Virus record (IMG/VR): IMGVR_UViG_3300035138_000032
Span: 1 to 64,000 of that record
Reading direction: 5' to 3' (one strand)
DNA length: 64,000 bases
Origin: a virus
Below the pieces are notes generated by a model. That model was not told where the DNA came from. It did not search any database and saw only the letters and a program-made list of their open reading frames with translations. The stretch's first letter is position 1; each line of letters opens with the position of its first letter. Made by a program: the position numbers and the translations under genes. Shown piece after piece: positions 2,962-46,058 of the stretch.

Positions 2962-3762
2962 TTATACGCCCACCTGAAAGAATCTGGAGGGTTTCGGCTG
3001 ATCCACCGGTGTTCCAGTCTGCTTGGCCGCATTTAAGAGCGCTTGGATATCCACACCTGCGTTGGCATTTTCGACCGCCGCTCCTCCTGCCTGTGCCCGC
3101 AGCATTGTCATCAGCCCGGTCATGAGTTCATTCGTATTATTTCCATCGATCGCATTTCCTTTTCCCTGGAACGGACCGATACCGGCGCCTCTGGGTGTTT
3201 CCACGGTTGCATATCCATATACCGGTGAATTGGGATTGAATGGCATATTTCGGCGTTTTTCGAGCTCGGCCTGCCACTCCTGGTAATCAGCTGTTCCTGG
3301 CAGGTTCCACCCAATGGGCCTCTGGCCGGCCTGGATTTCCTCCAGGATATGTTTTTGTGATTCCGCACCGAATAGGATCCATCCGGGGATCATCTTAAAC
3401 CCGACTTTCTTGGTGGTGAGCGGGGTGCCGTCCGCTTTGGTCACCATCGTTCCCGGCTGTCCTTGTACGGTGCTGGGTTGAAATACCCGTCCATCATACA
3501 GCTGGGGCACACATACACAGGAGAAGTCTTTTCCCCTGCTCAGGCTTTTCGCGCCCACGTCGGCCATTTTGTTCCATACGGTAAAGTTGTAGACGTCCGC
3601 GCGTCCTCTTCCATCATTTTCCAGGCCGGGTAAGTTGCAGAATGCATCAATCATGAGTCGCTGGTTTACGTCCGTACCGTTTTTGCTGTGCGCCGGTATA
3701 TAGGTGGTGCGAATGGTCGATAATCCGACAAAGATACTTAACGCCATGCTTCTTGAAGCCAT
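2962..3762 (-). CDS. Divergent SSB-like OB-fold protein
   Basis: ADVYNFTVWNKMADVGAKSLSRGK resembles the SSB motif W-x-x-A-E-x5-L-x-K-G; low-complexity C-terminal tail; GGAGG RBS before the ATG at 3762. Confidence 0.55.
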   Translation of the reverse strand: MASRSMALSIFVGLSTIRTTYIPAHSKNGTDVNQRLMIDAFCNLPGLENDGRGRADVYNFTVWNKMADVGAKSLSRGKDFSCVCVPQLYDGRVFQPSTVQGQPGTMVTKADGTPLTTKKVGFKMIPGWILFGAESQKHILEEIQAGQRPIGWNLPGTADYQEWQAELEKRRNMPFNPNSPVYGYATVETPRGAGIGPFQGKGNAIDGNNTNELMTGLMTMLRAQAGGAAVENANAGVDIQALLNAAKQTGTPVDQPKPSRFFQVGV

Positions 3763-3836
3763 AAGTTTTACCTCCGTAGTTTGTTGTTTTGGGTAGTTTG
3801 TAGTTGTGCGTAGGGGCCGACCTCGACCCAACGCGA

Positions 3837-4124
3837 TCAGAAATCGGTTAAGAGAAACTCAAATTCTTCTTCTGGTATTGGCTCACCCGTGTTCGGATTC
3901 TCGTGCGTTAGTGGGATATGGAATATTTCTTTTTGTCGCTCCCGTTCGCATGCCTCTACTTTTCTCACTTTCATTGTTGTATAATCATATAATACGAGGC
4001 AGGGGTCTCCGATTTTTAGTGTCTCGTGTTGGGGAAGCCTAAGTGTACTTCCTGTGGGTAGCTGCACTTTGAGCAGTCCCACGTTTCCGGTAACGACGCC
4101 TTTTAGCGCCGTAACGGTGATCAT
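3837..4124 (-). CDS. Hypothetical protein (small beta-barrel-like)
   Basis: ATGA overlap with the upstream gene; LKIGDPCLVLYD. Confidence 0.6.
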   Translation of the reverse strand: MITVTALKGVVTGNVGLLKVQLPTGSTLRLPQHETLKIGDPCLVLYDYTTMKVRKVEACERERQKEIFHIPLTHENPNTGEPIPEEEFEFLLTDF

Positions 4125-5677
4125 TGCACGGTTTCGTAGACATTGTCCACGATTTTTACGGCGCATTTTTCGTTGAACGTTGATCCGGCGCCTGCTTCAT
4201 CTCTGAACACCCATGCAATGATATGCCCCTGGCTTGCCTGGGCGGCATATTGTGTGAGCGCTCCATTGGCATTTTTCTTGTACGGATTCTGTGTCAGAAA
4301 CGATCTCAATACCTTGTTTCCGCCAAGATTTAGGGCCAGTTTGTATCCAACGATACCGCTTTTGGGAAATACCAAACCTGTTACTGCGCCGTTGAATGGC
4401 AATTCCGTTGCGGATTGTGTGTTTTCGATGGTGTAGCTCTGATATGACACAATCACGCCTTCGGCGCCGTATCGTTTGACAATTTCGCTCAAATCCACCG
4501 GATGGGCGATGGCCGGGATGTTTCCAAAGTGAAACGTATTGGTAGCGGGATTCTTTTTCCAGCCACAGTTCACGAACATGTGGTGGTACAGTTTTAGCCA
4601 TACTTCTTTCAGGAACGCCGGCAACATTTCCGTTGCGATGGTCGGCGCCGCACCCATTGTCACTGTTGATCCTGCTACTTCGTTGGGCAGTGGTACCTCA
4701 AACGGATTCGCATTTTCTTTGGGAGTGCTCGGTGCGTTTGTATTGACCGGTGTAGGGGGTACAGGCTGTGTACCCGTTCCGGCCAACATTGCCGTAATCT
4801 TGTTCAGGTAGTCTTGGGTAATTGCCGGTTCCGGTGTTTCTTCATCGACCTTTACTTCAGCGGTTCCGGCCACGGCTGGTTCCTGAACTTCGACTGATAC
4901 CGGTTTATCCACCACTTCGTGTACCTGTTCACCGTTCTCCAGATGGCCCTCGAGATTCACCGCTGTTACTTCTTGTTCCCACGCTTCCTCATCATTGGTG
5001 TAAGCCATTTTGATGAATTCACGTAGCGTTGTACAGCTTTTGGGGCCATCTTCGTAAACCACGCCATTGGCCAACTGGTCTTTGGCTTTGATCACCCAGG
5101 GCAGGTCTTTGGTGTCTTCACCGATGAATAAATCCATGAGCTCAACGCCGATGTACCCGAGGTCATCCGCCGGGATTTCGATGTCATACGTTTTGGCCAG
5201 GAATACCAGATCCGCCATTGCGTCGTTGTTGGCCGATTCTTCGAGTTCAACCGGTGCTTCCCTTTTTGCCTGTTCGTATATCGCTCTGTCCATCTGTGCG
5301 TTTTCGATGTGACTGATCTCATGTCCAATGGCCACTAATACATTCACCCAGATGATCCCGGCCAGTCCGAGGTTCACGTCCCCGCCGGCCGCAATCACTT
5401 TGGCATCTTCCATGCATTTCGCCAGGTTAATCACGATGGCGTCCACGTCCTCGTGGGCCATTCCGATGTTTCCTTCCGGATAATTGTCTTTCCGGAACAT
5501 CACCAACCGCGGCGGGTAATCCTTGTGTCGATCCAACAGCGCGCAGAGTAATCCGGTCATTTTGTCTCCGACCAGTTCCGCGCCGACGATCATTGTACCG
5601 CCCTTTGTGATGATGAATTCCTCGATCTCGGTTTCAACTTTCTTTTCTTGCTGTACTGCTGTTGCTACTTCATTCAT
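4121..5677 (-). CDS. 518-aa protein with an HExxH metallopeptidase-like motif and a Pro/Thr-rich linker
   Basis: VAIGHEISH followed by a downstream E (LEESAN); two domains joined by a linker; GGAGG RBS. Confidence 0.6.
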   Translation of the reverse strand: MNEVATAVQQEKKVETEIEEFIITKGGTMIVGAELVGDKMTGLLCALLDRHKDYPPRLVMFRKDNYPEGNIGMAHEDVDAIVINLAKCMEDAKVIAAGGDVNLGLAGIIWVNVLVAIGHEISHIENAQMDRAIYEQAKREAPVELEESANNDAMADLVFLAKTYDIEIPADDLGYIGVELMDLFIGEDTKDLPWVIKAKDQLANGVVYEDGPKSCTTLREFIKMAYTNDEEAWEQEVTAVNLEGHLENGEQVHEVVDKPVSVEVQEPAVAGTAEVKVDEETPEPAITQDYLNKITAMLAGTGTQPVPPTPVNTNAPSTPKENANPFEVPLPNEVAGSTVTMGAAPTIATEMLPAFLKEVWLKLYHHMFVNCGWKKNPATNTFHFGNIPAIAHPVDLSEIVKRYGAEGVIVSYQSYTIENTQSATELPFNGAVTGLVFPKSGIVGYKLALNLGGNKVLRSFLTQNPYKKNANGALTQYAAQASQGHIIAWVFRDEAGAGSTFNEKCAVKIVDNVYETVQ

Positions 5678-5740
5678 AATCCCTCCTGTCTTGTTGTTAA
5701 CGTTAACATGTTAGCCTTGCGCTAGGACCTCTATCGCATA

Positions 5741-5773
5741 ACGGTCCAGAGAAACAATGCAATGAACCGATCT
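5741..5773 (-). ncRNA. Repeated intergenic stem motif Q, copy 1
   Basis: Plus-strand RCRGT-N4/5-AGAAAC-Nx-CYGATCT; CGG/CCG version. Confidence 0.5.
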
Positions 5774-5791
5774 ACGCCACATAAATTTGTA

Positions 5792-6046
5792 TTATACCTC
5801 CTTGTGTTTCATGAGTTCTTCCCAAGCCTTTCCCTCACCGCGTCTGAACTTTGATGCCTGACGTTTTGTGGGCGCTATTCCAGATGCCATGCATGCGTTA
5901 ATGAACGATGTGTTCTCCTTAGCAAAAATTGCGTTTGATTCCGGCTCTTGGGTTTTTGGTTTTCGCACTGTAAATTCGAGTTTTTTCTTTATTGATTCTA
6001 TGGCCATTTCCGATAATAAGTCCACTATTTGTGATAATGTTGCCAT
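5792..6046 (-). CDS. Hypothetical basic protein
   Basis: 84 aa, GGGAGG RBS, PTKRQASKFRRGEG. Confidence 0.7.
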   Translation of the reverse strand: MATLSQIVDLLSEMAIESIKKKLEFTVRKPKTQEPESNAIFAKENTSFINACMASGIAPTKRQASKFRRGEGKAWEELMKHKEV

Positions 6047-25697: not shown

Positions 25698-26345
25698 ATG
25701 TTTAATAGAGAGACATTTTATACTCATATACGACCTATGTTCGGTGGTAAGCTTAAACAAAAGCAGGTCGATGGTTTTAATGCTATATTAGATTATTGGG
25801 AAAACGATGTAGAACGGTTGTCGGATTATGAGGACTCCTATGTTGTAGAGTTCCAGTGGTTGGCCTATATCTTAGCCACAGTACATCATGAGACGGCTAA
25901 AACCATACAACCAATAAAGGAGTATGGTAATAACGATTATTTTCATAGAATGTATGACATAGATGGCGAACGACCTCATGTAGCAACTAGACTAGGTAAT
26001 GTAGAGCCTGGTGATGGGGTCAAGTACGCTGGCCGTGGTTTTGTACAACTTACCGGTCGTCGTAATTACGCATTCTGGTCAGATGCCCTGGGTATTGATT
26101 TGATCGGTAATCCTGACATGGCTATGGATTTAGTAGTTGCTAGAGAAATTCTTATTATAGGTATGATAGATGGTACCTTCACTGGTCGAAAATTATCTAC
26201 GTATTTTGGTGATGATAAAACTGATTGGCGCAATGCGAGAAAAATAATAAACGGTCTTGATAAAGCAGATCTGATAGCCGGCTATGGTGAGGGTTATTTT
26301 GATGTTTTAGTGCGCGCGGATAACAGGTTTGACTTAATAATATAA
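25698..26345 (+). CDS. Glycoside hydrolase family 19 endolysin
   Basis: AYILATVHHET, YAGRGFVQLTGRRNY and ARKIING motifs. Confidence 0.9.
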   Translation: MFNRETFYTHIRPMFGGKLKQKQVDGFNAILDYWENDVERLSDYEDSYVVEFQWLAYILATVHHETAKTIQPIKEYGNNDYFHRMYDIDGERPHVATRLGNVEPGDGVKYAGRGFVQLTGRRNYAFWSDALGIDLIGNPDMAMDLVVAREILIIGMIDGTFTGRKLSTYFGDDKTDWRNARKIINGLDKADLIAGYGEGYFDVLVRADNRFDLII

Positions 26346-27940
26346 TGTTTAAAAAGCTAACATATGATTTTGTAAAAAGAAGTTTTGAGGAAAACGGATA
26401 TAAATTACTTTCTAAAGAGTATATTAATTCTTCTTCCAAGTTAGAATATGAATGTCCTAATGGACATAGACGTGGCATTACTTGGAATAAATGGAACGCC
26501 GGTAGACGGTGTCCTTATTGTTCCGAAAACAGTAGAGTATATGGTAGGGATATAGAATATATAAGAAGAGTTTTTGCCAAAGAGGGGTACACTCTTTTAA
26601 GCACTGAATATATATCTTGCGATACAAAACTTGAATATATTTGTCCTAATGGTCATATATACACAACGTCGTGGGATTCGTGGACTTCTAAGGGTAATAG
26701 GTGCGCTTTGTGCTCTAAAAATATCAAACCAACTATAGAGGAAGTAAAAGAGGCTTTCAAAACTAATGGGTATGTCTTATTAGAGGATAGTTATAAAAAC
26801 GCTAATACAAAGATGAGATATAAGTGTCCTAAAGGACATGAGGGTTATATTACGTGGGGTTATTGGAATAATAACTCTACTGAAAGATGCCCTATATGTT
26901 CTGGTAAATGTATACATAGTATAGAGTATATAAAGTCAGAGTTTGAGAAAGAGGGTTATAAGCTTTTAATTAAGGAATACAAAAACGGCAAGCAAAAATT
27001 AAAATATATTTGTCCAGATGGTCATAAACATTCAATAACTTGGAATAGGTGGCAGCAAGGCCAGAGGTGCTATAAGTGTTCTTTTAGTGGTACCTCTAAT
27101 GGTGAACAAAGTCTATTAAATTATCTGAGAGCTAATTTGGAATACGATATTATTGAAAGGGATAGAACCCTAATTTCTCCACAGGAATTAGATATTGTAA
27201 TCCCGGAAAAAAAATTAGCCATAGAATACTGTGGCCTCTATTGGCACTCCGAACTAGCTGGAAAAGACAAAAATTATCATCTTAATAAATTAAAAGCCTG
27301 CGAAGAAAAAGGATATAGGTTATTAACTATTTTTGAGGATGAATTTATTAATAAAAAGGATATTGTTAATAGTACTTTAAATAGTATTATTGGTTTTGGA
27401 GATTGTGAGGTTATTTACGCCCGTGATTGTGAGATAAAGGAAGTTAGCCCGGGTGTAATAAAAGAATTTTGTGAAAAAAATCATTTACAAGGTTATGATA
27501 ATGTATCGTCTGCTAGATTAGGTGCTTTTTATTGCAATAAACTTGTTGGTGTTATGTCTTTTAGTAAATTACCAATGGCTAATGAACAAGAGAATGTTTG
27601 GGAATTACATAGATTTTGTTCAAAATTAAATTATGAAATTATTGGAATTGAGTCTAAGTTATTAAATTACTTTGAAAATAATTGTAGTTGGAAATCGATT
27701 TTTTCATATTCAGATCTCAGGTGGTGTGATGGTGGTTTATACGAGATAATGGGGTTCACTTGTATAGGTAATACCAAACCAGATTATTGGTATTTTAAGA
27801 AGTTAAACAGAAAACATAGGTCTAGTATGGAGAAGTTAAAAAACGAACCGGCCGCTGAGCGGCAAATTCGTAAATCCCAAGGTCGTAATATAATTTGGGA
27901 TTGCGGAAATAAAAAATTTATCAAGGAGAATTGTAAATAG
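26345..27940 (+). CDS. Free-standing Hef-like homing endonuclease with four zinc-ribbon repeats
   Basis: GY-x-LL...Y-x-CP-x-GH...RC-x-x-C x4; ELDIVIPEKKLAIEYCGLYWHS; NHLQG; IWDCG. Confidence 0.8.
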   Translation: MFKKLTYDFVKRSFEENGYKLLSKEYINSSSKLEYECPNGHRRGITWNKWNAGRRCPYCSENSRVYGRDIEYIRRVFAKEGYTLLSTEYISCDTKLEYICPNGHIYTTSWDSWTSKGNRCALCSKNIKPTIEEVKEAFKTNGYVLLEDSYKNANTKMRYKCPKGHEGYITWGYWNNNSTERCPICSGKCIHSIEYIKSEFEKEGYKLLIKEYKNGKQKLKYICPDGHKHSITWNRWQQGQRCYKCSFSGTSNGEQSLLNYLRANLEYDIIERDRTLISPQELDIVIPEKKLAIEYCGLYWHSELAGKDKNYHLNKLKACEEKGYRLLTIFEDEFINKKDIVNSTLNSIIGFGDCEVIYARDCEIKEVSPGVIKEFCEKNHLQGYDNVSSARLGAFYCNKLVGVMSFSKLPMANEQENVWELHRFCSKLNYEIIGIESKLLNYFENNCSWKSIFSYSDLRWCDGGLYEIMGFTCIGNTKPDYWYFKKLNRKHRSSMEKLKNEPAAERQIRKSQGRNIIWDCGNKKFIKENCK

Positions 27941-32469: not shown

Positions 32470-35289
32470 ATGTCCGACATAATCATGGAGCAGGGTATGG
32501 AACTCATAGAATTTTATAGAGAAAATCCATGCATTGCTGCCTATGACCTGTTGCGTGTGGATTTAGCACCTATACAAAGGGCGGTCTTCGAGGATATGTG
32601 GTTTAAGAACTACGTTATAGCTATTTGTGGCCGTGGCGTAGGTAAGACTTTTATGTTAGGAACTTTATCTACTTTGAGTTGTATGCTGTACCCAGGATAT
32701 AGAGTAGGGTTAATTGGGCCCGTTTTCCGCCAAAGCAAGATGATCTTCAGTGAAGTTGAGAAACTTTACGCAAAATCCCCACTATTACGTGAAGCCTGTG
32801 AGAAGAGACCTACCAGGGGCTCTGATACCTGTTATTTAAGATTCAAGTCCGTAGGAGGTTGTAGTCCCTCATTTATCGAAGCGTTACCTTTGGGCGATGG
32901 CTGTATAACTTCTTGTAATTATTTGACATTTAGTGATAGATTTGGAAAAATAGATGACGCTCATGTTGATAATATAGATCACAATCACTATTTAGATAGA
33001 GAAGATATGGTGTGGTCTAATGGTGCTTTTAAGCTAACTGATAGATCTTTATGTAATGGTATAAAAAATACTATCAAAATTAAGACCAAAAAAGGTTTTG
33101 AAAGCGAAGGTACGCCTAATCATGAGTTTAAAGTAGTCAGAGGCGGTGAGATAGTTTGGTGTAGATTTGATGCTATGGTAGTTGGGGATCGTGTATTAAT
33201 AGATCGAACTAAACGGTGGCATAGTGGACATACTGATGTGACAAAGGAACAGGCTTATTCTTTGGGTTTATTAGTTGCTGGGTGTGATTCATCTATAGTT
33301 AATTCGTGGTTATGTGATACGTTTGGTTTATCTAAAGTTAAAACTATAGACAAATCCATACCAAAAGTTATATTATGTTCAAGCAGGGATGTTATGTCAT
33401 CTTTTATAAGAGGATTGATGGACGGTGATGGTTCTATTTCGGATAAAGGTGATAGAATTATTTTTACAAATACTTCAAAAGAATTAGTTGGCCAATTACA
33501 ATATATCTTACTACATTATGGTATTGTTGCAAAGTTGAGTAAAAAGCCCGAATGTAACTCAAATTGGAATGTGTGTTATACATTAGATATTACTGGTACT
33601 AATGTTGATTTATATATGAAAGAAATAGGTTTTGGTTTATCCAGAAAAACCAATAAATACATTCATAGAGATACATATAACCATTATGATACTGTACCAA
33701 TTGACATACATATGGTAATTGATTTTGTTAATGAATATCATTACAAAGGCTTCGATGGTTGTAGAAAATGCCCCGATATAGTCCCCAGCAAACTGATTAG
33801 TAGAAAAGACTTATCTTTTGCATTATGTGATGATTTATTATATAAATATGGACATATTGATGATAGTAGAATAGACATAATACGCAGATTAAATAATACT
33901 AATATATATTATGATGAAATAATAGAAATTACTGATGGAGAAGCGTGTACATATGATATTCATGTACCAGACGGTAATGAATACTGTGCAAATGGTTTTT
34001 TCAGTCATAATAGTAAGATCCGTGGTTCACGTTTCTATCTTATAGTAGTGGACGAGTTAGCTCAAGTCCCAGACCAAGTATTGGATATGGTTGTTAGACC
34101 TATGGGCGCCACAACACTCGAACCAATGGAAAATGTTAGGAGATTACAGCGGCAAGAAAAATTGATTAAGTTAGGACTAGCTACAGAGGATGATTTTGAA
34201 GATGGTAAAATTAATAAAATGGTAATGACTTCATCAGGGTTTTATAAGTTCAATCATATGTGGCGTAGAATGAAAGACTATTGGCGGCAAATGGAGCTTC
34301 ACGGTGAAGAATCTCAATATAAAGTTTGGCAGGTACCTTATTGGGATTTACCAAATGGATTTCTTGATGAGAATAATATAAAGGAGGCGGAACGTATAAT
34401 GTCTTCCGCTGAATTTAGTATGGAATACGAAGCCGCGATGGTATCTGATTCAGAGGGATTTTTCAAAGCTTCCGTGTTGGAGTCTTGTACCGGATCTTTT
34501 GGTTTGGAGGTCCGTGGTGAGCCAGGAGCCGAATATGTTGTTGGTGTAGACCCAAGTCAGGGAGGTAGTGCGAGTTGCGGTGTAGTAATCGTAAGGCTGG
34601 GTAATCCAAATGTGCTTGTTAATGTGTTGGAATTGAAGGGTAAGACCACACAGGAATTAACAATGACAGTACAGGCTATCTGTGAGTCCTATAATGTTGT
34701 TAGGATTTTCATGGATAAGGGCGGCGGTGGTAATGCTATAATGGACTTATTAGAAGAAGGCTATAATAGTAAGGAACCGATAATAGATCGCTCGGATAAA
34801 GATAAGGTAACTTTGAAGGGCCGCCATATACTTGAGATGGTTAATTTTAATCCGACATGGATAACTGATGCTAATTTTACTACTCTAGCTATGTTGGAAG
34901 ATAAGAAGTTATTATTTCCAGAGACCCCTGTTGATGGTGTCTCTGTACTTGATAAGATTTACAAAAACATTTTGACTTTAAAGAAGCAAATGTTGAATAT
35001 AGTTGTAACACAGACTGGCTCCGGCGCTCTGCATTTTGATACACCTAAGAAGGGGCAGAATAAGGATTTATATTCAGCCATGATTCTAGCTGCTCATGGT
35101 TGTAAGCTCGTGGCCCGTGAATTGGAGGGCGATCCTGAACCACTGTTATACCAGACAGGGGGTTATGTACAAGAGCGTAAACCTAATGCCCCTTGGCATT
35201 TTCTAGGAGCTCATAGTTCACCTGGTACTACAGTGCTTGATGGTTTATTAGGACATGCTATATTAAAAAATAAGCGTATAATTAAATAA
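32470..35289 (+). CDS. terL: Terminase large subunit with an intein (mature protein about 569 aa)
   Basis: Walker A GRGVGKT, Walker B LIVVDE, nuclease motifs VGVDP and KDLYSA. Confidence 0.93.
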   Translation: MSDIIMEQGMELIEFYRENPCIAAYDLLRVDLAPIQRAVFEDMWFKNYVIAICGRGVGKTFMLGTLSTLSCMLYPGYRVGLIGPVFRQSKMIFSEVEKLYAKSPLLREACEKRPTRGSDTCYLRFKSVGGCSPSFIEALPLGDGCITSCNYLTFSDRFGKIDDAHVDNIDHNHYLDREDMVWSNGAFKLTDRSLCNGIKNTIKIKTKKGFESEGTPNHEFKVVRGGEIVWCRFDAMVVGDRVLIDRTKRWHSGHTDVTKEQAYSLGLLVAGCDSSIVNSWLCDTFGLSKVKTIDKSIPKVILCSSRDVMSSFIRGLMDGDGSISDKGDRIIFTNTSKELVGQLQYILLHYGIVAKLSKKPECNSNWNVCYTLDITGTNVDLYMKEIGFGLSRKTNKYIHRDTYNHYDTVPIDIHMVIDFVNEYHYKGFDGCRKCPDIVPSKLISRKDLSFALCDDLLYKYGHIDDSRIDIIRRLNNTNIYYDEIIEITDGEACTYDIHVPDGNEYCANGFFSHNSKIRGSRFYLIVVDELAQVPDQVLDMVVRPMGATTLEPMENVRRLQRQEKLIKLGLATEDDFEDGKINKMVMTSSGFYKFNHMWRRMKDYWRQMELHGEESQYKVWQVPYWDLPNGFLDENNIKEAERIMSSAEFSMEYEAAMVSDSEGFFKASVLESCTGSFGLEVRGEPGAEYVVGVDPSQGGSASCGVVIVRLGNPNVLVNVLELKGKTTQELTMTVQAICESYNVVRIFMDKGGGGNAIMDLLEEGYNSKEPIIDRSDKDKVTLKGRHILEMVNFNPTWITDANFTTLAMLEDKKLLFPETPVDGVSVLDKIYKNILTLKKQMLNIVVTQTGSGALHFDTPKKGQNKDLYSAMILAAHGCKLVARELEGDPEPLLYQTGGYVQERKPNAPWHFLGAHSSPGTTVLDGLLGHAILKNKRIIK
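32902..34011 (+). mobile_element. Intein (370 aa) with a degenerate LAGLIDADG domain
   Basis: G|CITS N-terminus, GTPNH block B, FIRGLMDGDGS, TYDIHV...ANGFFSHN|S C-terminus. Confidence 0.93.
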
Positions 35290-39460: not shown

Positions 39461-40147
39461 ATGAGTGATGAACTGAAAAAAGATGTGGAGAGGCTTGTTA
39501 CTGAAATTTTTTCTCAGAAAGAGGAAGAAGCACAGAGAGCTGAAACCGAGAGGGCTCTCAACAAATCCGCTGAAGCTATCTCCCAGTTAACAGAATCCTT
39601 GGAGGCTAAAAATACCGAATTGGAAGAGGTTGCTGGTACCATCGAGAGTTTGAATAGTAAAATTGACGAGTTGACTTCTGAGCTTGAGGCGGCTAAGAAG
39701 GAAACCGAAGAGAAGGCTAATAAACTCACTGAAGCGGAGACTTTAATTGATAATATGAATAAAGACAAAGCTGCTGAGATCAGAATGAATGAATTGGTTA
39801 GTGTTGGTGTAGCTCTCTCTGATAAGAAGACTCAGTCTGCTAAGGTTAGAGAGATGAGTGATGAGGAATTTGCTTCTTATAAAGAAGAGTTGACTTCTAT
39901 AAGGGCAGCGGTTGAGGCCGAATTGGCTAAGAAACCCGTTGACTCTGTGGTTGTCGAACCGACTCCGAATACACCTACAGTGGAAGACGCTAATGCAGAT
40001 GGTGATTCAGATGATTTGGCTCCTGCTAATGTAGACCCAAATCTTACTGCATCAGCAGCTATGAATTTAGAAGTGAAAACTGATGACAGCTTCCTGTCAA
40101 AGTACGCTGAATTAGGCAAGGCTATGGCAGCGAAGATGAAAAATTAG
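39461..40147 (+). CDS. Scaffolding protein
   Basis: Acidic coiled coil upstream of the capsid genes. Confidence 0.65.
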   Translation: MSDELKKDVERLVTEIFSQKEEEAQRAETERALNKSAEAISQLTESLEAKNTELEEVAGTIESLNSKIDELTSELEAAKKETEEKANKLTEAETLIDNMNKDKAAEIRMNELVSVGVALSDKKTQSAKVREMSDEEFASYKEELTSIRAAVEAELAKKPVDSVVVEPTPNTPTVEDANADGDSDDLAPANVDPNLTASAAMNLEVKTDDSFLSKYAELGKAMAAKMKN

Positions 40148-40168: not shown

Positions 40169-40816
40169 ATGTTTAGTCCAAGACATCCTGTTGTTTTAAA
40201 TCAATTTTGTAGTTACGGGGCACAGACAGCCACATCTACTGGCGGCGTTGGCGCTGTAGTAGCTTATGCTGGTTCCGTTGTTTATCTTGATTCTTCAGCT
40301 GCAAATCAGGACGCTATCGTCTATAAAATGGCGCATGGTGTTACTGCCACGCCATTTGGGATCGCTATGCAGAAGGTCAAGACTGGGTATCACCAAGTAC
40401 ATCCTACTGGTTTTATGATGCCCGGTGATTTGGGGTCTAGTGATGTGCTTGCCCAGCCGGATTACGATAGTAATGGTGATATCCAGGGTACCAAAGAGGC
40501 ACCTTTGGGTGTCGCTCATCTTGGTATTTGGGATACCGTGCATTATACTTGTGACATGACAGCGAGTGTTATTCAAACTGGCGATAATATGAAACCAGGT
40601 GACGCGTTGTATGTTGCGGCCGATGAGGCTAAGCTGACTAATAATAGTACTGATGTTTCCGTAGGTACAGCTTCCACAGATAAGGCTAATGGGTCTTATA
40701 TCGATGGTCAGACTACAGCTGTGGGTATATGTATGAAGGGAGCCAGTTTGGCTAAGTGTCAGGCTAATTTTAACAACACAACTCTATATCCGATAAGGGT
40801 AAAGCTGTTGGTGTAA
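40169..40816 (+). CDS. Head decoration/cement-like protein
   Basis: Beta-rich, with PGDALYV and AVGIC motifs; directly upstream of the major capsid gene. Confidence 0.6.
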   Translation: MFSPRHPVVLNQFCSYGAQTATSTGGVGAVVAYAGSVVYLDSSAANQDAIVYKMAHGVTATPFGIAMQKVKTGYHQVHPTGFMMPGDLGSSDVLAQPDYDSNGDIQGTKEAPLGVAHLGIWDTVHYTCDMTASVIQTGDNMKPGDALYVAADEAKLTNNSTDVSVGTASTDKANGSYIDGQTTAVGICMKGASLAKCQANFNNTTLYPIRVKLLV

Positions 40817-40880: not shown

Positions 40881-43800
40881 ATGGAACTCAAAGAAATGCA
40901 GGAATTATTTAAAGCCACTGCTGAGATTGGCCCCGCTGGTGAGGCCGCTTTTAAGGCATTTGCTGCTGCTATCACAACTCCTATCCTTCAGAAATTAGAG
41001 CTGGATTCGATTATGCGAGGAATGTTTGCTACTGAACGGTTGGCACCGGGTAAATTTTTGTGCCCCGCGTAGTTGGGAGACTACGTAGTAAACCTAACTA
41101 TATGCTGGAAACTCCTAAAGCTGTTCTTTACTGATAACGTAATAAAAAGGAAGATAAAATGGATAATCATGCAGATAACTTTATTATTAGTACTAATTAT
41201 ATAGCTGGTTTAGTGGATAGTGATTTTGGTGTTTATATAAGTAGATTTTATCCTAGAGGTAAATTACGATTAAGTCCGTGTATACAATTCGTTAATACTA
41301 ATTTTGGTTTGATTGAGTTGTGTCACAAATACTTAGATGATAATGATATAAACCATCATATAAGATTCAGGAAGGCTACAGTAGGTAAGGATAAAAAAGA
41401 GCTCACTATAAATAGACTTATTAAATGTATAGAGTTCGCGGACTTGGTGGTAGGTTGTAGTGTTGTTAGAAAACCTCAATTAGAAATAATTAGGGAATTC
41501 TGTGTTGACAGACTACATTATGTTTATGAATGTGGCTGGAAACAAAATAATACACCTTACACTGATTACCAGAAGAAATTATATGATGAGTTGTTAAATT
41601 TGAATCTTAACTATAATTATGATAATGGTAATAGAAATTACACTGCCTCTTGGTTGGCCGGTATGATAGACGGTGATGGTTCGGTATGTTTTGTTGTTAC
41701 TGAAAACAAAAAAAGTGAGTATGAATTAGTCAATGGGGATATTAGAGAATATTATCATACGCGTGTTATACCAACTATAGATATAACTACTGGATCTGAT
41801 ACTAATCGGAATAACATAATCACTATTTTTGATAATTTGGATATTAAGTATTCTATTAGAACTACTAAGTCTAAGGCCAAGAAAAGATTAGGTAAAAATA
41901 AAAAGAAATACTATTACAATCTATACATTAGGTCTTATGATGATATAGAAAAGTTCTTGTTGTATGTTAAGGATAAATTATATGCCAAACGTAGACAAGC
42001 TATACTGATGTTAGAGTACTTAGAATTAAAAAAGAATAACAAATTCAATACTGACGAAGTTTTCGATATAGTAAATAAAGTAAAGTTTTTAAACAATAAT
42101 CCTAATAATAAAGACATCTCAGAGACTACACGTTAGGTACCTTTATAGGTAATAATATAGTCCGAACTGTATGGAGACATACAGAGGTTATCTCGCGATA
42201 GCCCGCCTGAAATAAAAAAAATTCCAGGTCAAAAAGTAACAGAATGGCTCAAGCCGTTTATCCCGTAAATTGTTGCGTTTCGTAATAGTAATATTACGTC
42301 AAAATCCCCTTAATTGCTGGAAAGCCCTAAAGCTTTTTATACTGATATAGTAATAATTAAAAAGATATATGGGTAATCAGCAGCGTGTAAAAAGCGTTCA
42401 ACGACCAGGCTTTTATAGCCGTAGGCTTCAAGTGAAGCCGAAATTGGGGAAACCCTTAGAAGGGTTTTGATATGGTCTCATCTTTATGGAAACATAAAGC
42501 AGTTTCTTTGTGAAACGACATGTATTTAACGAATACATGTGAAGATATTGAGCAGAAGACTTCGAGATTCCCGTGTGGGTGTTACCGGGACTCGGTTATA
42601 TGGCTCAGAATTTCATTGAAGGTATAGGTGAAGAGGTTTACGTGCCTACGTTTAATATTAACGCGTCGGCACAGTGGAAGATTACTTATGCTCGTGATTC
42701 TCGTATTGATATTGCACAGCGTTCGGCCGCTAAGGTGGCCAAGGAATTGGCAGATTATGAGGAAGAGTAAACACACATGCTCCTTTATATAGTGATATAT
42801 AAAGCAAACTATGAATATGCTGGAAACTCTCGTTAGGTCATAGGTACTAGTCAATGTACAGTAAAAACCCTATGAATAGAGACAATCAGCAGAAATGGAG
42901 AACTTATGATTATAGAAAGAGATATCTTAAAAAATACATTTAAAGGGAATATATTTGAAACAGCTGTAGAGTTGAGAGTATCTATACAAACTGTTATGGC
43001 ATCGCTTAAAAAACACGATATGACATTTATTAAACCAAAACATATATATGGAGAATTAAAAAGAACTGATTTTTCTGATTTTCAAAAAAGTCTTTTGATA
43101 GGTAGTGTATTAGGCGATGGTCATATAGAGAAAAGATCACATTTAAAAAATGCATTATTTAGAGAAGAGCACTCCACGGATCAAGTTGAATGGTTAAAAT
43201 GGAAATATAATAATTTAAAGCCGTTTACCACTTCAAATATGTGGAATAGAGATAGAGGAAAAAAGATGTGGATGCCTGATGGTAGGAGTAATAAAAAATT
43301 ATATAATATTCAGAAAGTGTATTCTATGTCTACCGGTGTTCATCCTTATTTAACTGAATTACACAAACTTTTTTACAAAAATAAAACCAAAATTCTGCCT
43401 AAAGAGTTTTTAATAAGTAATTTTAATATGGTTTCGTTAGCGGTCTTGATAGGTGATGACGGTAATTTTTGTGAAAATAGTCTTCGTTTTTGTACTGATA
43501 ATTTTAGTAAGGAAGAGGTATATTTTTTAGCAGATCTTTTTTCTAATTTTTATAACAGTAGAATTACTGTAAGACAGCAAGACAATAAATATAGGATAGT
43601 TTTTACTTATATTAAGCAGGATTTAAAGTTTTTTGATGGTATTAAGAATATATTACCTAAATGTATGCATCATAAAGTAACTCCAGTTCTCAACGAACAC
43701 CAAGTAGCTACTCATTGAGTAGAAGGTATGTTCTGAACTCCATGGAGACATGGAGAGGTTAAAAGAAATTTTAGCCCGCCTGAAAATAAATAATTTCAGG

Positions 43801-44478
43801 TCATAAAAGTAACAGAGTGGTGGTTGGAGAGTTATTATGCCAGCTTGTACATCGTCTTTTTCTGGTAAAGGTCTGTTAGGGTCCAGGCCTGCTCCGATTT
43901 ATGAAATCAACCCAGCTTCTACAGGAGCTGGATACCTTTCTAAGGAACTCATCAATAAAATGATGGTTGGTTTCAAGAGAGTAGGACGCCAGTTGACTGA
44001 TTTGTATATATCTCCTGAAGATGCGGCTGACATTCGTGAATGGACGGATACGGATATTGACCCCATTACACGGCGAGAAGTTTTCCAGGCGGCCGGAATG
44101 GGAGTTATTTGGAATGTGACAATGCATGAAGTTCAGCATCTTGGCGCCACTGGTCTTTATAACATAAATGGTTACGGATCTGAGTATGGTAAGTTTATTG
44201 CTGCTAGTGGAAATACTTACAATCAGTATACTCTTGATAATCCTAATTTGACCAATGCTGATGGTACCATTAATACGCTGGGCGAGACCCAGATTATAGG
44301 TTTTGACTCTACTGTCAATGATTCTCTTGTTATGCCTATTCGAAAGGAATATGAAGCATACGATGATCCTACTCTGCTTCGTTCTCAACAGCAAGGGTTT
44401 TTTGGATGGGCAGAGCTTGGATTCGCCTGTCTTGATCCGAGAATGCTAGGTATTGGAGTTATTGATAGAAGTCTGTAA
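40881..44478 (+). CDS. Major capsid protein in four exons (40881-41051, 42247-42266, 42551-42768, 43820-44478); 355 aa when spliced
   Basis: The joined exons total 1068 nt in one open frame: ...ERLAPG|AQAVYPV|AEDFEIPVW...DYEEE|CGWRVIMPA...; size and position fit a major capsid protein. Confidence 0.85.
41052..42246 (+). mobile_element. Group I intron 1 with a LAGLIDADG ORF
   Basis: Exon ends in U, intron ends in G; P TGCTGGAAA, R CAGAGACTA, S ATATAGTCC; P9 CTGTATG-GAGA-CATACAG. Confidence 0.9.
41159..42136 (+). CDS. Two-motif LAGLIDADG homing endonuclease (intron 1)
   Basis: YIAGLVDSDFG and WLAGMIDGDGS; the ORF ends in the R element (ISETTR). Confidence 0.9.
   Translation: MDNHADNFIISTNYIAGLVDSDFGVYISRFYPRGKLRLSPCIQFVNTNFGLIELCHKYLDDNDINHHIRFRKATVGKDKKELTINRLIKCIEFADLVVGCSVVRKPQLEIIREFCVDRLHYVYECGWKQNNTPYTDYQKKLYDELLNLNLNYNYDNGNRNYTASWLAGMIDGDGSVCFVVTENKKSEYELVNGDIREYYHTRVIPTIDITTGSDTNRNNIITIFDNLDIKYSIRTTKSKAKKRLGKNKKKYYYNLYIRSYDDIEKFLLYVKDKLYAKRRQAILMLEYLELKKNNKFNTDEVFDIVNKVKFLNNNPNNKDISETTR
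42267..42550 (+). mobile_element. Group I intron 2, ORF-less, 284 nt
   Basis: TTGCTGGAAA, AATCAGCAG, CAACGACCA and ATATGGTCT; P9 CTTTATG-GAAA-CATAAAG; IGS TTGTTGCG pairs with both exons. Confidence 0.9.
42769..43819 (+). mobile_element. Group I intron 3 with a LAGLIDADG ORF
   Basis: P1 GAGU/GCUC; ATGCTGGAAA, AATCAGCAG, CAACGAACA and GTATGTTCT; 3' end GTAACAGAGTG resembles that of intron 1. Confidence 0.9.
42906..43718 (+). CDS. LAGLIDADG homing endonuclease (intron 3)
   Basis: LLIGSVLGDGH and LAVLIGDDGN. Confidence 0.9.
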   Translation: MIIERDILKNTFKGNIFETAVELRVSIQTVMASLKKHDMTFIKPKHIYGELKRTDFSDFQKSLLIGSVLGDGHIEKRSHLKNALFREEHSTDQVEWLKWKYNNLKPFTTSNMWNRDRGKKMWMPDGRSNKKLYNIQKVYSMSTGVHPYLTELHKLFYKNKTKILPKEFLISNFNMVSLAVLIGDDGNFCENSLRFCTDNFSKEEVYFLADLFSNFYNSRITVRQQDNKYRIVFTYIKQDLKFFDGIKNILPKCMHHKVTPVLNEHQVATH

Positions 44479-44552: not shown

Positions 44553-46058
44553 ATGTACAAAGATAAGAAATGTCAATATAAACAGTGTGATAATATTTTT
44601 ACTCCTACTACAGGGAGTCAAAAGTATTGTTCATCCTGTGCTATTAAATCTAAACAGGAAAAGGACAGGCTAAGGTGGCGAGATCGTAACAGAGAGCTTA
44701 ATTGTTATAAAGAATATACAAGGTTATGTAAAATATGCGGTAAAGAGTTTAAAACATTTTATAAAAAGAAAATTTATTGTGGCTCAGAGAAGTGTGAAGC
44801 AGAACGTATTAGATTGAAAAATAAAAATTATCATGAAAAAAGAGATCATGATTATATGATAGGGAAAGGTAGAAGTTATTATAGAAAAAATAAAGCTTCT
44901 ATTTTATTAAAGAAAGCCGCAGTATATAGAAAAAATAATAAAAATGTAAAGAGATATAAAAATAAAATACACATTCATAATATTGATTATATACGAAACT
45001 ATGTTGAAGAGCGCGGTTACCAATTACTTTCAAAAGAATATTTAAATAGTAAAAGTAAAATTAAATTAAAGTGTCCTAATGGGCATACTTGGAAAACAAC
45101 TTTTCATAATTTTAGAGATGCTAATAGCAGGGGAGAGATCATTACTGGGGCTAGATGTATTACATGTTATTTGAACAATAATTATACGTCCAAACCTGAA
45201 CAGAAAATTCGTGATTTTTTTAAGGAACATCACCCCAATATAAAATGTCTATATAATGATAGAACTGTAATAGGACCAAAAGAATTAGATTTGTATTTTC
45301 CTTCTAATAAAGTTGCTGTTGAGGTTTGCGGTTTATACTGGCATTCCGAAAATCTTGGTAATACTGATAGAAATTATCATTATGAAAAGATGGTAGCTTG
45401 TTTTAATAATGGAGTGAGACTAATAACGGTTTTTGAAGACGAGATCTATAATAAGTTTGATATTGTAATTTCTAGGATCTGCCAGGCATTGGGAATTATT
45501 AAACATAAGGTCTTTGCAAGAAATTGCGACGTTAGAGAGATTTCTGCTAATGAAGCTAATGGGTTTTTTGAAAAGAATCATTTACAAGGAAAGTCAAATA
45601 GTGTAAAGGCTTGGGGACTGTTTAATAATAACAAGTTAATTGCAGCATGTGGTGTAGGTAATTTATTAAGAAAACGTATATCAAATAAAAATGTATTAGA
45701 GTTGAAAAGATTCTGTTCTTTGATAAATTATACTGTTGTAGGTGGAGCAAACAAACTATTTAAGCACGTAGTTATGTATGCAAAGAAATTAGGATATGAT
45801 GAGATAAGGTCCTACTGTGATATGAGGTATGCTAATATTTTTAATGTGGTATATGATATATTAGGTTTTAAATTACTGACTTTAACTAAATATACACCAC
45901 ATCATTTTAAATCCGGTATAAGATATAGGAATTTCTCTTTGAGAAAGATTGCTGTAGAACGTGAGTCAGGTAAAACTGAATTTGAATTGAGAAAAGCTCA
46001 AGGTTATGATAGGATTTGGGATTGCGGCCACAGAACTTATGTTTATAGAATTATCTAA
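44553..46058 (+). CDS. Free-standing Hef-like homing endonuclease
   Basis: Zinc motifs; ELDLYFPSNKVAVEVCGLYWHS; NHLQG; RIWDCG; paralog of 26345..27940. Confidence 0.8.
   Translation: MYKDKKCQYKQCDNIFTPTTGSQKYCSSCAIKSKQEKDRLRWRDRNRELNCYKEYTRLCKICGKEFKTFYKKKIYCGSEKCEAERIRLKNKNYHEKRDHDYMIGKGRSYYRKNKASILLKKAAVYRKNNKNVKRYKNKIHIHNIDYIRNYVEERGYQLLSKEYLNSKSKIKLKCPNGHTWKTTFHNFRDANSRGEIITGARCITCYLNNNYTSKPEQKIRDFFKEHHPNIKCLYNDRTVIGPKELDLYFPSNKVAVEVCGLYWHSENLGNTDRNYHYEKMVACFNNGVRLITVFEDEIYNKFDIVISRICQALGIIKHKVFARNCDVREISANEANGFFEKNHLQGKSNSVKAWGLFNNNKLIAACGVGNLLRKRISNKNVLELKRFCSLINYTVVGGANKLFKHVVMYAKKLGYDEIRSYCDMRYANIFNVVYDILGFKLLTLTKYTPHHFKSGIRYRNFSLRKIAVERESGKTEFELRKAQGYDRIWDCGHRTYVYRII

Follow-up and report, generated by a model that had tools for sequence, protein, structure and literature searches.

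We analyzed a stretch of viral DNA of 64,000 nt, referred to here as the window, which corresponds to positions 1–64000 of the 77,388-base IMG/VR record IMGVR_UViG_3300035138_000032 (G000). The record is listed as a linear fragment of a virus, rated 28% complete by CheckV, and its source is an uncultured wetland tailed phage. Our subject is a gene at 40881–44478 on the plus strand, predicted to encode the major capsid protein of this phage, whose coding sequence is interrupted by three inserts with the characteristics of group I introns; two of these inserts are separated by an exon of only 20 nt. The gene is composed of the following features.

40881–41051, plus strand: capsid exon 1, 171 nt, amino acids 1–57, ending in ...CCGGGT, with the ribosome binding site GGAGGAG upstream
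41052–42246, plus strand: predicted group I intron 1, 1195 nt, with its terminal G at 42246
42247–42266, plus strand: micro-exon 2, 20 nt, GCTCAAGCCGTTTATCCCGT, encoding AQAVYP and 2 nt of a valine codon
42267–42550, plus strand: predicted group I intron 2, 284 nt, without an open reading frame (ORF)
42551–42768, plus strand: capsid exon 3, 218 nt, ending in ...GAAGAGT
42769–43819, plus strand: predicted group I intron 3, 1051 nt
43820–44478, plus strand: capsid exon 4, 659 nt including the stop codon, amino acids 137–355

Structure of the interrupted capsid gene

An earlier note, made from the sequence of this DNA alone, had proposed that removal of the three inserts restores a capsid reading frame, and this proved correct. 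Excision of 41052–42246, 42267–42550 and 42769–43819 yields 1068 nt, corresponding to 355 codons and a stop, with no internal stop codon. The joined protein contains the junction peptides LAPG/AQAVYP(V)AEDF and YEEE(C)GWR (slashes mark splice junctions here and below), in agreement with that note, and the peptides spanning its junctions are LAPGAQAVYPVAEDF and YEEECGWR. Two of the three exon junctions split codons. Each 5' exon ends in U and each intron in G, as had also been described, with T and G present at the respective positions of all three introns. The introns have a GC content of 0.30–0.35 as compared to 0.43–0.55 in the exons.

Comparison with uninterrupted homologs served as an independent examination of the junctions. 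A search with exon 4 identified three uninterrupted metagenomic homologs of 404–408 amino acids (P0001–3), and alignment of these with the joined protein revealed no insertion or deletion at any junction, ERLAPGAQAVYPVAEDFEIPVW lying opposite EMLAPGQKAIYPVEDDFEAPVW and YEEECGWRVIMPA opposite YEDEGAFRVIWPA; the comparison with intron-less homologs suggested in the earlier note therefore bears out its junctions. A scan of viral contigs with a 10-sequence capsid alignment gave 80 related loci, 70 of which contain an uninterrupted gene as judged by a single full-length tblastn high-scoring segment pair extending from residue 1–3 to residue 353–355. These 70 homologs exhibit 52–83% amino acid identity to the window protein, and the best of them (80–83%) are also 1068 nt long. 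The peptide encoded by the micro-exon aligns in every relative with a conserved AQA[VS]YP[VI]A motif, and skipping of the micro-exon shifts the reading frame.

A potential concern with an interrupted gene from metagenomic DNA is that the interruptions arose during assembly. The evidence on this point comes from DNA contigs. The whole stretch is spanned by one contig, and identical short contigs from a different study bridge the boundary between exon 3 and intron 3, indicating that the interrupted gene was not created by assembly. In a diverged DNA contig of another wetland sample, exon 3 is joined to exon 4, with 142 nt between the mapped parts, which is the spacing expected (104 + 38 nt) for an allele without intron 3. 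As far as sequence comparison can establish it, the structure of four exons and three introns is confirmed as real.

The capsid identity of the gene was examined by fold prediction and profile searches, the main tests being run on P0001, an uninterrupted homolog of 408 amino acids that is 50–54% identical to the window protein. P0001 matches phrog_2522 'major head protein' with an E-value of 4.5e-11, and exon 4 alone matches the same family at an E-value of 0.0021. An AlphaFold2 (AF2) model of P0001 based on a 60-sequence alignment had a predicted local distance difference test score (pLDDT) of 92.5 and a predicted template modeling score (pTM) of 0.87. When the model was compared by Foldseek to the PDB, the top matches were all HK97-fold capsid or encapsulin proteins with a probability of 1.00, the matches including T5, DT57C, HK97, cyanophages and HFTV1. 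An HK97 fold, named in the earlier note as a check on its reading of the gene, was in this way found for the homolog. The gene is located downstream of that for the large terminase and is preceded by a coiled-coil scaffold-like ORF (39461–40147) and then a decoration/cement-like ORF (40169–40816). The structural model supports the identification of the interrupted gene as an HK97-fold major capsid gene.

Ribozyme architecture of the inserts

The helices that were located in the three inserts are consistent with the group I fold. Positions of paired strands are given in brackets.

41052–42246, plus strand: intron 1, P1 GGGUA/UGCCC (41048/41061), P3 CCUAAC/GUUAGG (41093/42132), P4 GCUGG at 41104, P6 AGAU/AUCU (41173/42116), P7 GACUA/UAGUC (42124/42158), P8 from 42138, and P9 at 42167–42184 with a GAGA loop
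42267–42550, plus strand: intron 2, P1, P2, P3–P9, P7.1/P7.2 and P9.1/P9.2, with P7 GACCA/UGGUC (42403/42473)
42769–43819, plus strand: intron 3, P1 GAGUA/UGCUC (42765/42778), P2 with a GUGA loop, P4 at 42819, P7 GAACA/UGUUC (43695/43729), P8 CUACUC/GAGUAG (43708/43717), and P9 at 43738–43755

Each insert closes the capsid frame near its 5' end. An in-frame stop is found 6 codons inside intron 1 and 5 codons after the junction codon in intron 2, and in intron 3 a TAA stop is formed exactly at the 5' junction. Inteins and group II introns, which were considered as other identities for the inserts, are ruled out by these stops in the capsid frame together with the group I architecture.

Intron 2 could be assigned by its match to a covariance model. 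Searched as part of a 341-nt query, it scored 67.8 bits (E-value 2.5e-17) over the full model (positions 1–253) of Rfam family RF00028 (Intron_gpI), for which the gathering threshold is 50 bits, and 68.7 bits in a second search. Its thermodynamic fold has a minimum free energy (MFE) z-score of -5.2, and the fold alone recovers P1, P2, P3, P4, P5/P5a, P6, P7.1, P7.2, P8, P9, P9.1 and P9.2. The P7.1/P7.2 hairpins (42408–42440) are a feature of intron 2 and are absent from introns 1 and 3, in which the P3' strand begins 3 nt after P7. Rfam cmscan searches of the whole 64-kb window (gathering threshold and E ≤ 10) and of a 3.8-kb stretch (E ≤ 10) returned no Intron_gpI, an effect of the search filters. 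A 68-bit intron was missed by the wide scan, and negative Rfam scans of AT-rich phage windows are therefore not proof of absence.

The assignment of introns 1 and 3 rests on comparison because ORF inserts of approximately 0.8–1 kb in L6 break the Rfam model. The comparative set consisted of eight introns, these being the three of the window, one each from the related capsid loci L069, L077 and L080, and two from L068. RNAalifold applied to a MAFFT alignment recovered P9 and P9.1 only, and P7 was added by hand for the covariation test; P3, P6 and P8, whose alignment columns are misregistered or divided by the ORF, were checked by script. In the aligned 3' halves of the eight introns, the positions of P7, P9 and P9.1 pair in 96.6% of cases as compared to 63.8% in shuffles. 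Compensatory changes occur at 18 of the 20 pairs of these helices, and none of 500 shuffles reached any of the five measures used. When the strands were slid by 1–3 columns as a control, pairing fell to 31–44%. The pair flanking the P7 bulge (columns 12/92) switches from G-C to A-U. The earlier note had pointed to covariation of P7 and P9 across the window introns; its P7 pairs GACTA/TAGTC, GACCA/TGGTC and GAACA/TGTTC were all located, and the covariation is far beyond chance.

The script check demonstrated that the strands of P1, P3, P5a, P6, P7, P8 and P9 are complementary in all eight introns though their sequences differ. The pairs of the long-range P3, whose strands are separated by more than 1 kb in introns with an ORF, read CCUAAC/GUUAGG, UUUGGC/GCCGAA, CUUAGC/GCUAAG, CUUUGC/GCAAAG, GAGAAC/GUUCUC and UCCCC/GGGGA. 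P9 is capped by GNRA loops. Invariant sequences are found at P4/J4-5 (UGCUGGAAA) and J5-4/P4' (AAUCA[U]GCAG), and all eight exactly mapped introns are preceded by U and end in G. This shared architecture supports the classification of the three inserts as group I introns.

The small size of exon 2 raises the question of how it is used by the ribozymes on either side. According to the earlier note, the micro-exon must act both as the 3' exon of intron 1 and as the P1 partner of intron 2. The second role holds for the last 3 nt of the micro-exon (CGU) and not for the rest, the P1 helix of intron 2 being otherwise made of intron sequence. As for the first role, the initial bases of the micro-exon form, as judged by eye, at most a 2-base-pair P10 with intron 1. 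A contribution of 3 nt to P1 and at most 2 base pairs to P10 suggests that both ribozymes would need little from the micro-exon. We also observed that the first 6 nt of the micro-exon (GCUCAA; 42247–42252) are fully complementary to UUG/AGC across the junction of intron 2 and exon 3 (42548–42553), a pairing that is present in the MFE fold; this could be due to chance or could be a helix drawing the two ends of intron 2 close to each other.

Insertion sites and endonuclease genes

To describe the distribution of the introns, we designated their positions in the capsid gene as sites a to g, given here with the guide sequence of the intron found at each; L068_A and L068_B denote the two introns of L068.

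Site a, LAPG/AQA: guide GCCC, window intron 1 and L069
Site b, AQA/VYP: guide GGCCUG, L068_A
Site c, YPV, GU/A: guide GCG, window intron 2
Site d, PVA/EDF: guides GGCCAC and GGCG, L080 and L068_B, respectively
Site e, EDFEI, AU/U: guide GUCUC, L077
Site f, YEEE-C, U/GU: guide GCUC, window intron 3
Site g, after GLG: L195, the seventh site

In each of the three window introns and the five introns of relatives, the guide pairs with the intron's own 5' exon and forms a U·G pair at the splice site. The guide differs at each of six insertion sites and in every case fits the exon there. A homologous intron is present in L069 at a site identical to that of intron 1, and L077, L080, L068 and L195 have related introns at sites other than those of the window introns. 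When spliced in silico, L069, L077, L068 and L080 translate to frames of 356–357 amino acids that are colinear with the intron-less genes. In total, 11 introns are present at seven sites in six contigs, with mini-exons of 15, 20 and 29 nt, and six of the seven sites fall inside approximately 70 nt of coding sequence.

Two of the relatives also contain very short exons. In L068 (IMGVR_UViG_3300026534_000035, 4002–6000), two endonuclease-bearing introns (4002–5073 and 5089–6000) flank a micro-exon of 15 nt (5074–5088; GTTTACCCAGTCGCT) that encodes VYPVA and is shorter than the 23-nt exon of phage Twort discussed below. Like the window, L195 (IMGVR_UViG_3300009702_000031, 3344–5922) has a capsid gene into which three group I introns are inserted, at sites b, e and g. 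Its introns extend from 3527 to 4620 (with an ORF), from 4650 to 4861 (without an ORF) and from 4891 to approximately 5620 (with an ORF), leaving two mini-exons of 29 nt each. For the third intron, the 3' boundary is uncertain by a few bases, there being two options that keep the frame and that differ from the consensus by +1 or -1 amino acid; the locus is partial, and the reading frame is open to its end.

L195 was found by scanning viral contigs for a conserved-core pattern, followed by filtering with nhmmer and tblastn. By a rough estimate, the raw matches to the pattern were about as many as chance predicts. Of the 117 pattern loci (L085–L201; core TGCTGGAAA...AATCAGCAG), 73 matched a P3-P4-P5-P4' core profile derived from the introns described here, significantly and over its full length, and two core matches in one locus were observed in L088, L099, L102 and L165. 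Among the pattern loci, only L091, L149 and L195 belong to this capsid family, and of these L091 is the L080 contig and L149 the L077 contig. When approximately 0.8 Mb of related loci and the complete 77-kb genome were examined, exact core matches were confined to the eight mapped introns of the capsid genes, and the one-mismatch near-matches found elsewhere look like chance.

Introns 1 and 3 of the window each contain an ORF in the P6 loop.

41159–42136, plus strand: intron 1 ORF, 325 amino acids, double-motif LAGLIDADG type (AGLVDSDFG, AGMIDGDGS)
42906–43718, plus strand: intron 3 ORF, 270 amino acids, LAGLIDADG homing endonuclease

The start and the end of the intron 1 ORF overlap core ribozyme sequence. 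Its match to the Pfam family Hom_end (PF05204; E-value 4.4e-4) scored 20.8 bits, slightly below the cut-off of 21.1, and it matches phrog_5046 with an E-value of 9.6e-9. Intact homologs of this ORF, 43–57% identical, are present in introns of L069, L077 and L068 (sites a, e and b). The intron 3 ORF matches LAGLIDADG_2 (PF03161; E-value 8.2e-32) and phrog_11023 (1.9e-12), and introns related to intron 3 occur in L080 and L068. The ORF of L068_B is placed after P7, where intron 2 has P7.1/P7.2, whereas the ORFs of the window introns are placed in L6. By their motifs and profile matches, both window ORFs are intact genes for homing endonucleases of the LAGLIDADG type.

Selfish elements are unusually numerous in the genome. 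The large terminase ORF (32470–35289, plus strand; 939 amino acids) has terminase matches at residues ~8–126 and 509–882, and between them both a LAGLIDADG_3 domain (PF14528; E-value 7.3e-16; residues 308–379) and a match to the intein splicing domain PF14890 at 33.9 bits, slightly below the cut-off. The insert between the terminase matches is probably an intein with an endonuclease domain. Two free-standing endonuclease genes that are paralogs of each other, at 26345–27940 (plus strand, 531 amino acids) and at 44553–46058 (plus strand, 501 amino acids), match phrog_559/phrog_3339 with E-values of up to 1.5e-118, the second of these being located directly downstream of the capsid gene. The 531-amino-acid copy contains CapR and Mom-like domains according to Pfam, and both paralogs match the Mom-like PHROG phrog_1384. 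A search of the INPHARED phage collection gave neither a near match nor a protein-level match to the phage. Several of the capsid relatives were found on contigs of 211–545 kb, from which the phage may be a jumbo phage.

Origin and significance of the introns

The locus can be related to several known systems. The group IA2 introns in td, nrdB and nrdD of phage T4 combine P7.1/P7.2 with a U·G pair at the splice site, a stop codon early in the reading frame and, optionally, endonuclease ORFs in peripheral loops; they reside in nucleotide-metabolism genes, and their endonucleases are of the GIY-YIG or HNH type. On general grounds, and independent of any alignment, intron 2 resembles these introns in having P7.1/P7.2, whereas introns 1 and 3 differ from them in lacking P7.1/P7.2 and in encoding LAGLIDADG enzymes. 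The P8-P7'-P9 core of intron 2 is 81% identical to Intron_gpI-annotated introns of Silviavirus (Twortvirinae; Staphylococcus) phage, which are found directly after a 'virion protein 5' gene and adjoin the tail sheath gene.

The closest published arrangement is that of Staphylococcus phage Twort, in which the tail tube gene orf142 has three group I introns and a 23-nt exon, and exon skipping was observed (Landthaler and Shub 1999, via PMC10136302 and PMC11878797). As there described, the two loci have in common a tailed phage's late gene for a virion structural protein, in which three group I introns are present and two of them flank an internal exon of very small size (23 nt in Twort, 20 nt in the window). 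They differ in the host gene, which in the window is an HK97-fold capsid gene rather than a tail tube gene, and in the LAGLIDADG ORFs of two of the window introns. Introns 2 and 3 of Twort, which flank the short exon, are highly similar in that account, whereas the corresponding window introns are dissimilar, intron 1 containing an ORF and intron 2 none. Exon skipping was shown in Twort, whereas the window locus is known from DNA alone.

Introns in capsid genes also have precedents. The major capsid genes of lactococcal phage Tuc2009 and mycobacteriophage LittleE each contain an intron, probably of group I, that carries a putative gene for a homing endonuclease, and the LittleE intron is spliced efficiently in late infection (PMC3706429); these phages have one intron each as compared to three and a micro-exon in the window, and their capsid families and hosts are unrelated. 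In faustovirus and kaumoebavirus, the major capsid genes contain 13–18 introns over many kb, the number varying between isolates (PMC9116030). The likeness lies in the capsid gene as an intron hot spot, with some introns being of group I and having homing endonucleases, but those giant viruses are eukaryotic and have a capsid protein of the double jelly-roll type, and the window derives from a tailed phage with an HK97 fold. Exons of fewer than about 4 codons 'occur regularly' among organellar introns of groups I and II, such as those of fungal mitochondrial cox1 (PMC10352661), and a 34-nt exon is present in the Coxiella 23S rRNA (PMC10136302); these mini-exons are likewise left between neighboring self-splicing introns, but in organellar or rRNA genes. 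A recent survey found phage introns mostly in DNA-metabolism and terminase genes (PMC11878797). The rarity implied in the earlier note was nonetheless overstated, since both capsid introns (Tuc2009, LittleE; PMC3706429) and a phage structural gene with three introns (Twort orf142) have been published. In the open-access literature we found neither a capsid gene of a tailed phage containing two or more introns nor an exon of fewer than 23 nt in a phage, that of Twort being the only phage mini-exon found. A capsid gene with three introns is thus unusual but not new in kind.

What we observed of the gene structure, the fold, the ribozyme architecture, the endonuclease families and the distribution in relatives leads us to infer splicing, homing and neutrality: the capsid gene has very probably been invaded by three mobile group I introns, which are selfish passengers tolerated through efficient splicing and not a regulatory device. 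The gene would be transcribed as a single 3.6-kb precursor, in which each intron would fold on its own into a group I ribozyme. Pairing of the internal guide with the last bases of the upstream exon would mark the 5' splice site by a U·G wobble, and an external guanosine would cleave there; the terminal G of the intron would then occupy the G-binding site in P7, and the exons would be ligated. An early in-frame stop inside the intron is usual for phage introns, and the stops found 0–6 codons into each window intron would keep ribosomes off the ribozyme cores. The 355-amino-acid capsid protein would be produced only if all four exons are included. Exon-skipped products all truncate at 76–79 amino acids, and all three splices must therefore be accurate. 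The LAGLIDADG enzymes of introns 1 and 3 presumably cut the intron-less alleles of co-infecting relatives so that the intron is copied in, and the 20-nt exon would be what remains between two neighboring insertion sites.

The earlier note had suggested that three splicing steps could throttle or time capsid synthesis. An adaptive device of this type, in which the most abundant late protein is throttled or delayed by splicing in series or by the dependence of that splicing on GTP, Mg2+ or the state of translation, could draw on two points: only inclusion of all four exons gives capsid protein, so that splicing efficiency must set capsid yield, and exon skipping near a short exon has been described in Twort orf142 as well as in a Bastillevirinae polymerase gene (PMC10136302, PMC11878797). 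However, a conserved role predicts conserved presence and position, and the same protein is made from an uninterrupted gene in 70 of the 80 relatives; those relatives that do have introns carry one, two or three of them distributed over seven sites. Most of the introns contain homing endonuclease genes, and no conserved regulatory element was seen. Mostly intron-less relatives, varied intron numbers and sites, and endonuclease ORFs indicate selfish mobile elements rather than a conserved timing device, so that the suggestion is unsupported and regulation by splicing is an unlikely explanation of the introns. Quite unlikely, in our estimation, is an arrangement that was selected as an alternative-splicing switch, in which competition between the clustered ribozymes around the mini-exons, through a skipped exon or one splice that fails, diverts a tunable fraction of the transcript to N-terminal products of 63–79 amino acids. 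If such a switch existed, its products would comprise a helical N-terminal segment and a short tail, and could act in a scaffold-like manner or set the ratio of capsid to scaffold.

We also considered whether the gene is functional at all. That it is dead, a pseudogene disrupted by insertions on a defective phage fragment, with decayed introns that no longer splice, would be compatible with the 28% completeness of the record, with the lack of an endonuclease gene in intron 2 and with the Rfam scores of introns 1 and 3 below the cut-off. Yet the exons are free of stops and frameshifts and the protein is 80–83% identical to intact relatives; the ribozyme helices are all intact and exhibit compensatory changes, the guides match, both endonuclease ORFs are intact, and the in-frame stops lie just inside the introns as they do in working phage introns. 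The same phage sequence is furthermore present in runs of two further studies (X2, X3), and we consider a pseudogene very improbable. Almost no credence can be given to the inserts being free-standing endonuclease cassettes by which the capsid gene is divided into parts that are translated separately and later assemble, as for some phage nrd genes. Endonuclease ORFs are indeed found in two of the three inserts, and the genome has free-standing endonuclease genes at 26345–27940 and 44553–46058, but a 20-nt exon cannot be a gene of its own, exons 2–4 have neither start codons nor ribosome binding sites at their 5' ends, and two of the junctions split codons. Intron 2 lacks an ORF and yet scores as a complete group I intron, and ribozyme helices flank the ORFs of the other two.

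Several observations weigh against invasion by mobile, efficiently spliced introns and are reflected in the strength with which we propose it. The splicing of the three introns is predicted from their structure. In searches with RF00028, the 3' half of intron 1 scored 40.9 bits, below the cut-off, and intron 3 gave no match. P10 appears weak (2–4 base pairs, by eye), from which the choice of 3' splice site between similar introns could be leaky. The divergence of the introns (~70% at the nucleotide level) resembles that of the host gene (~75%), and recent homing is therefore not demonstrated. Conservation of the DNA at the insertion sites ranges from the 25th to the 97th percentile of the gene, which is only moderate and is weaker than the usual pattern in which homing endonucleases target the most conserved sites. 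Finally, the fragmentary nature of the record leaves the viability of the phage unproven.

For annotation, the locus serves as a warning: automated gene callers give the capsid gene as fragments, and a whole-window Rfam scan missed three introns. The demands upon the introns would be high. The capsid protein is usually the most abundant phage protein, and three serial ribozymes must therefore each work near-perfectly, with an exon of 20 nt (15 nt in a relative) serving two ribozymes at once. The locus is in this respect a natural example that puts the accuracy and speed of bacterial group I splicing to a demanding test. What the analysis adds beyond the single locus is the picture of a family, with two related lineages of intron and LAGLIDADG gene at seven sites and with guides retuned at each site, which provides a natural series for studying how ribozyme guides and LAGLIDADG specificities shift together during ectopic transposition.

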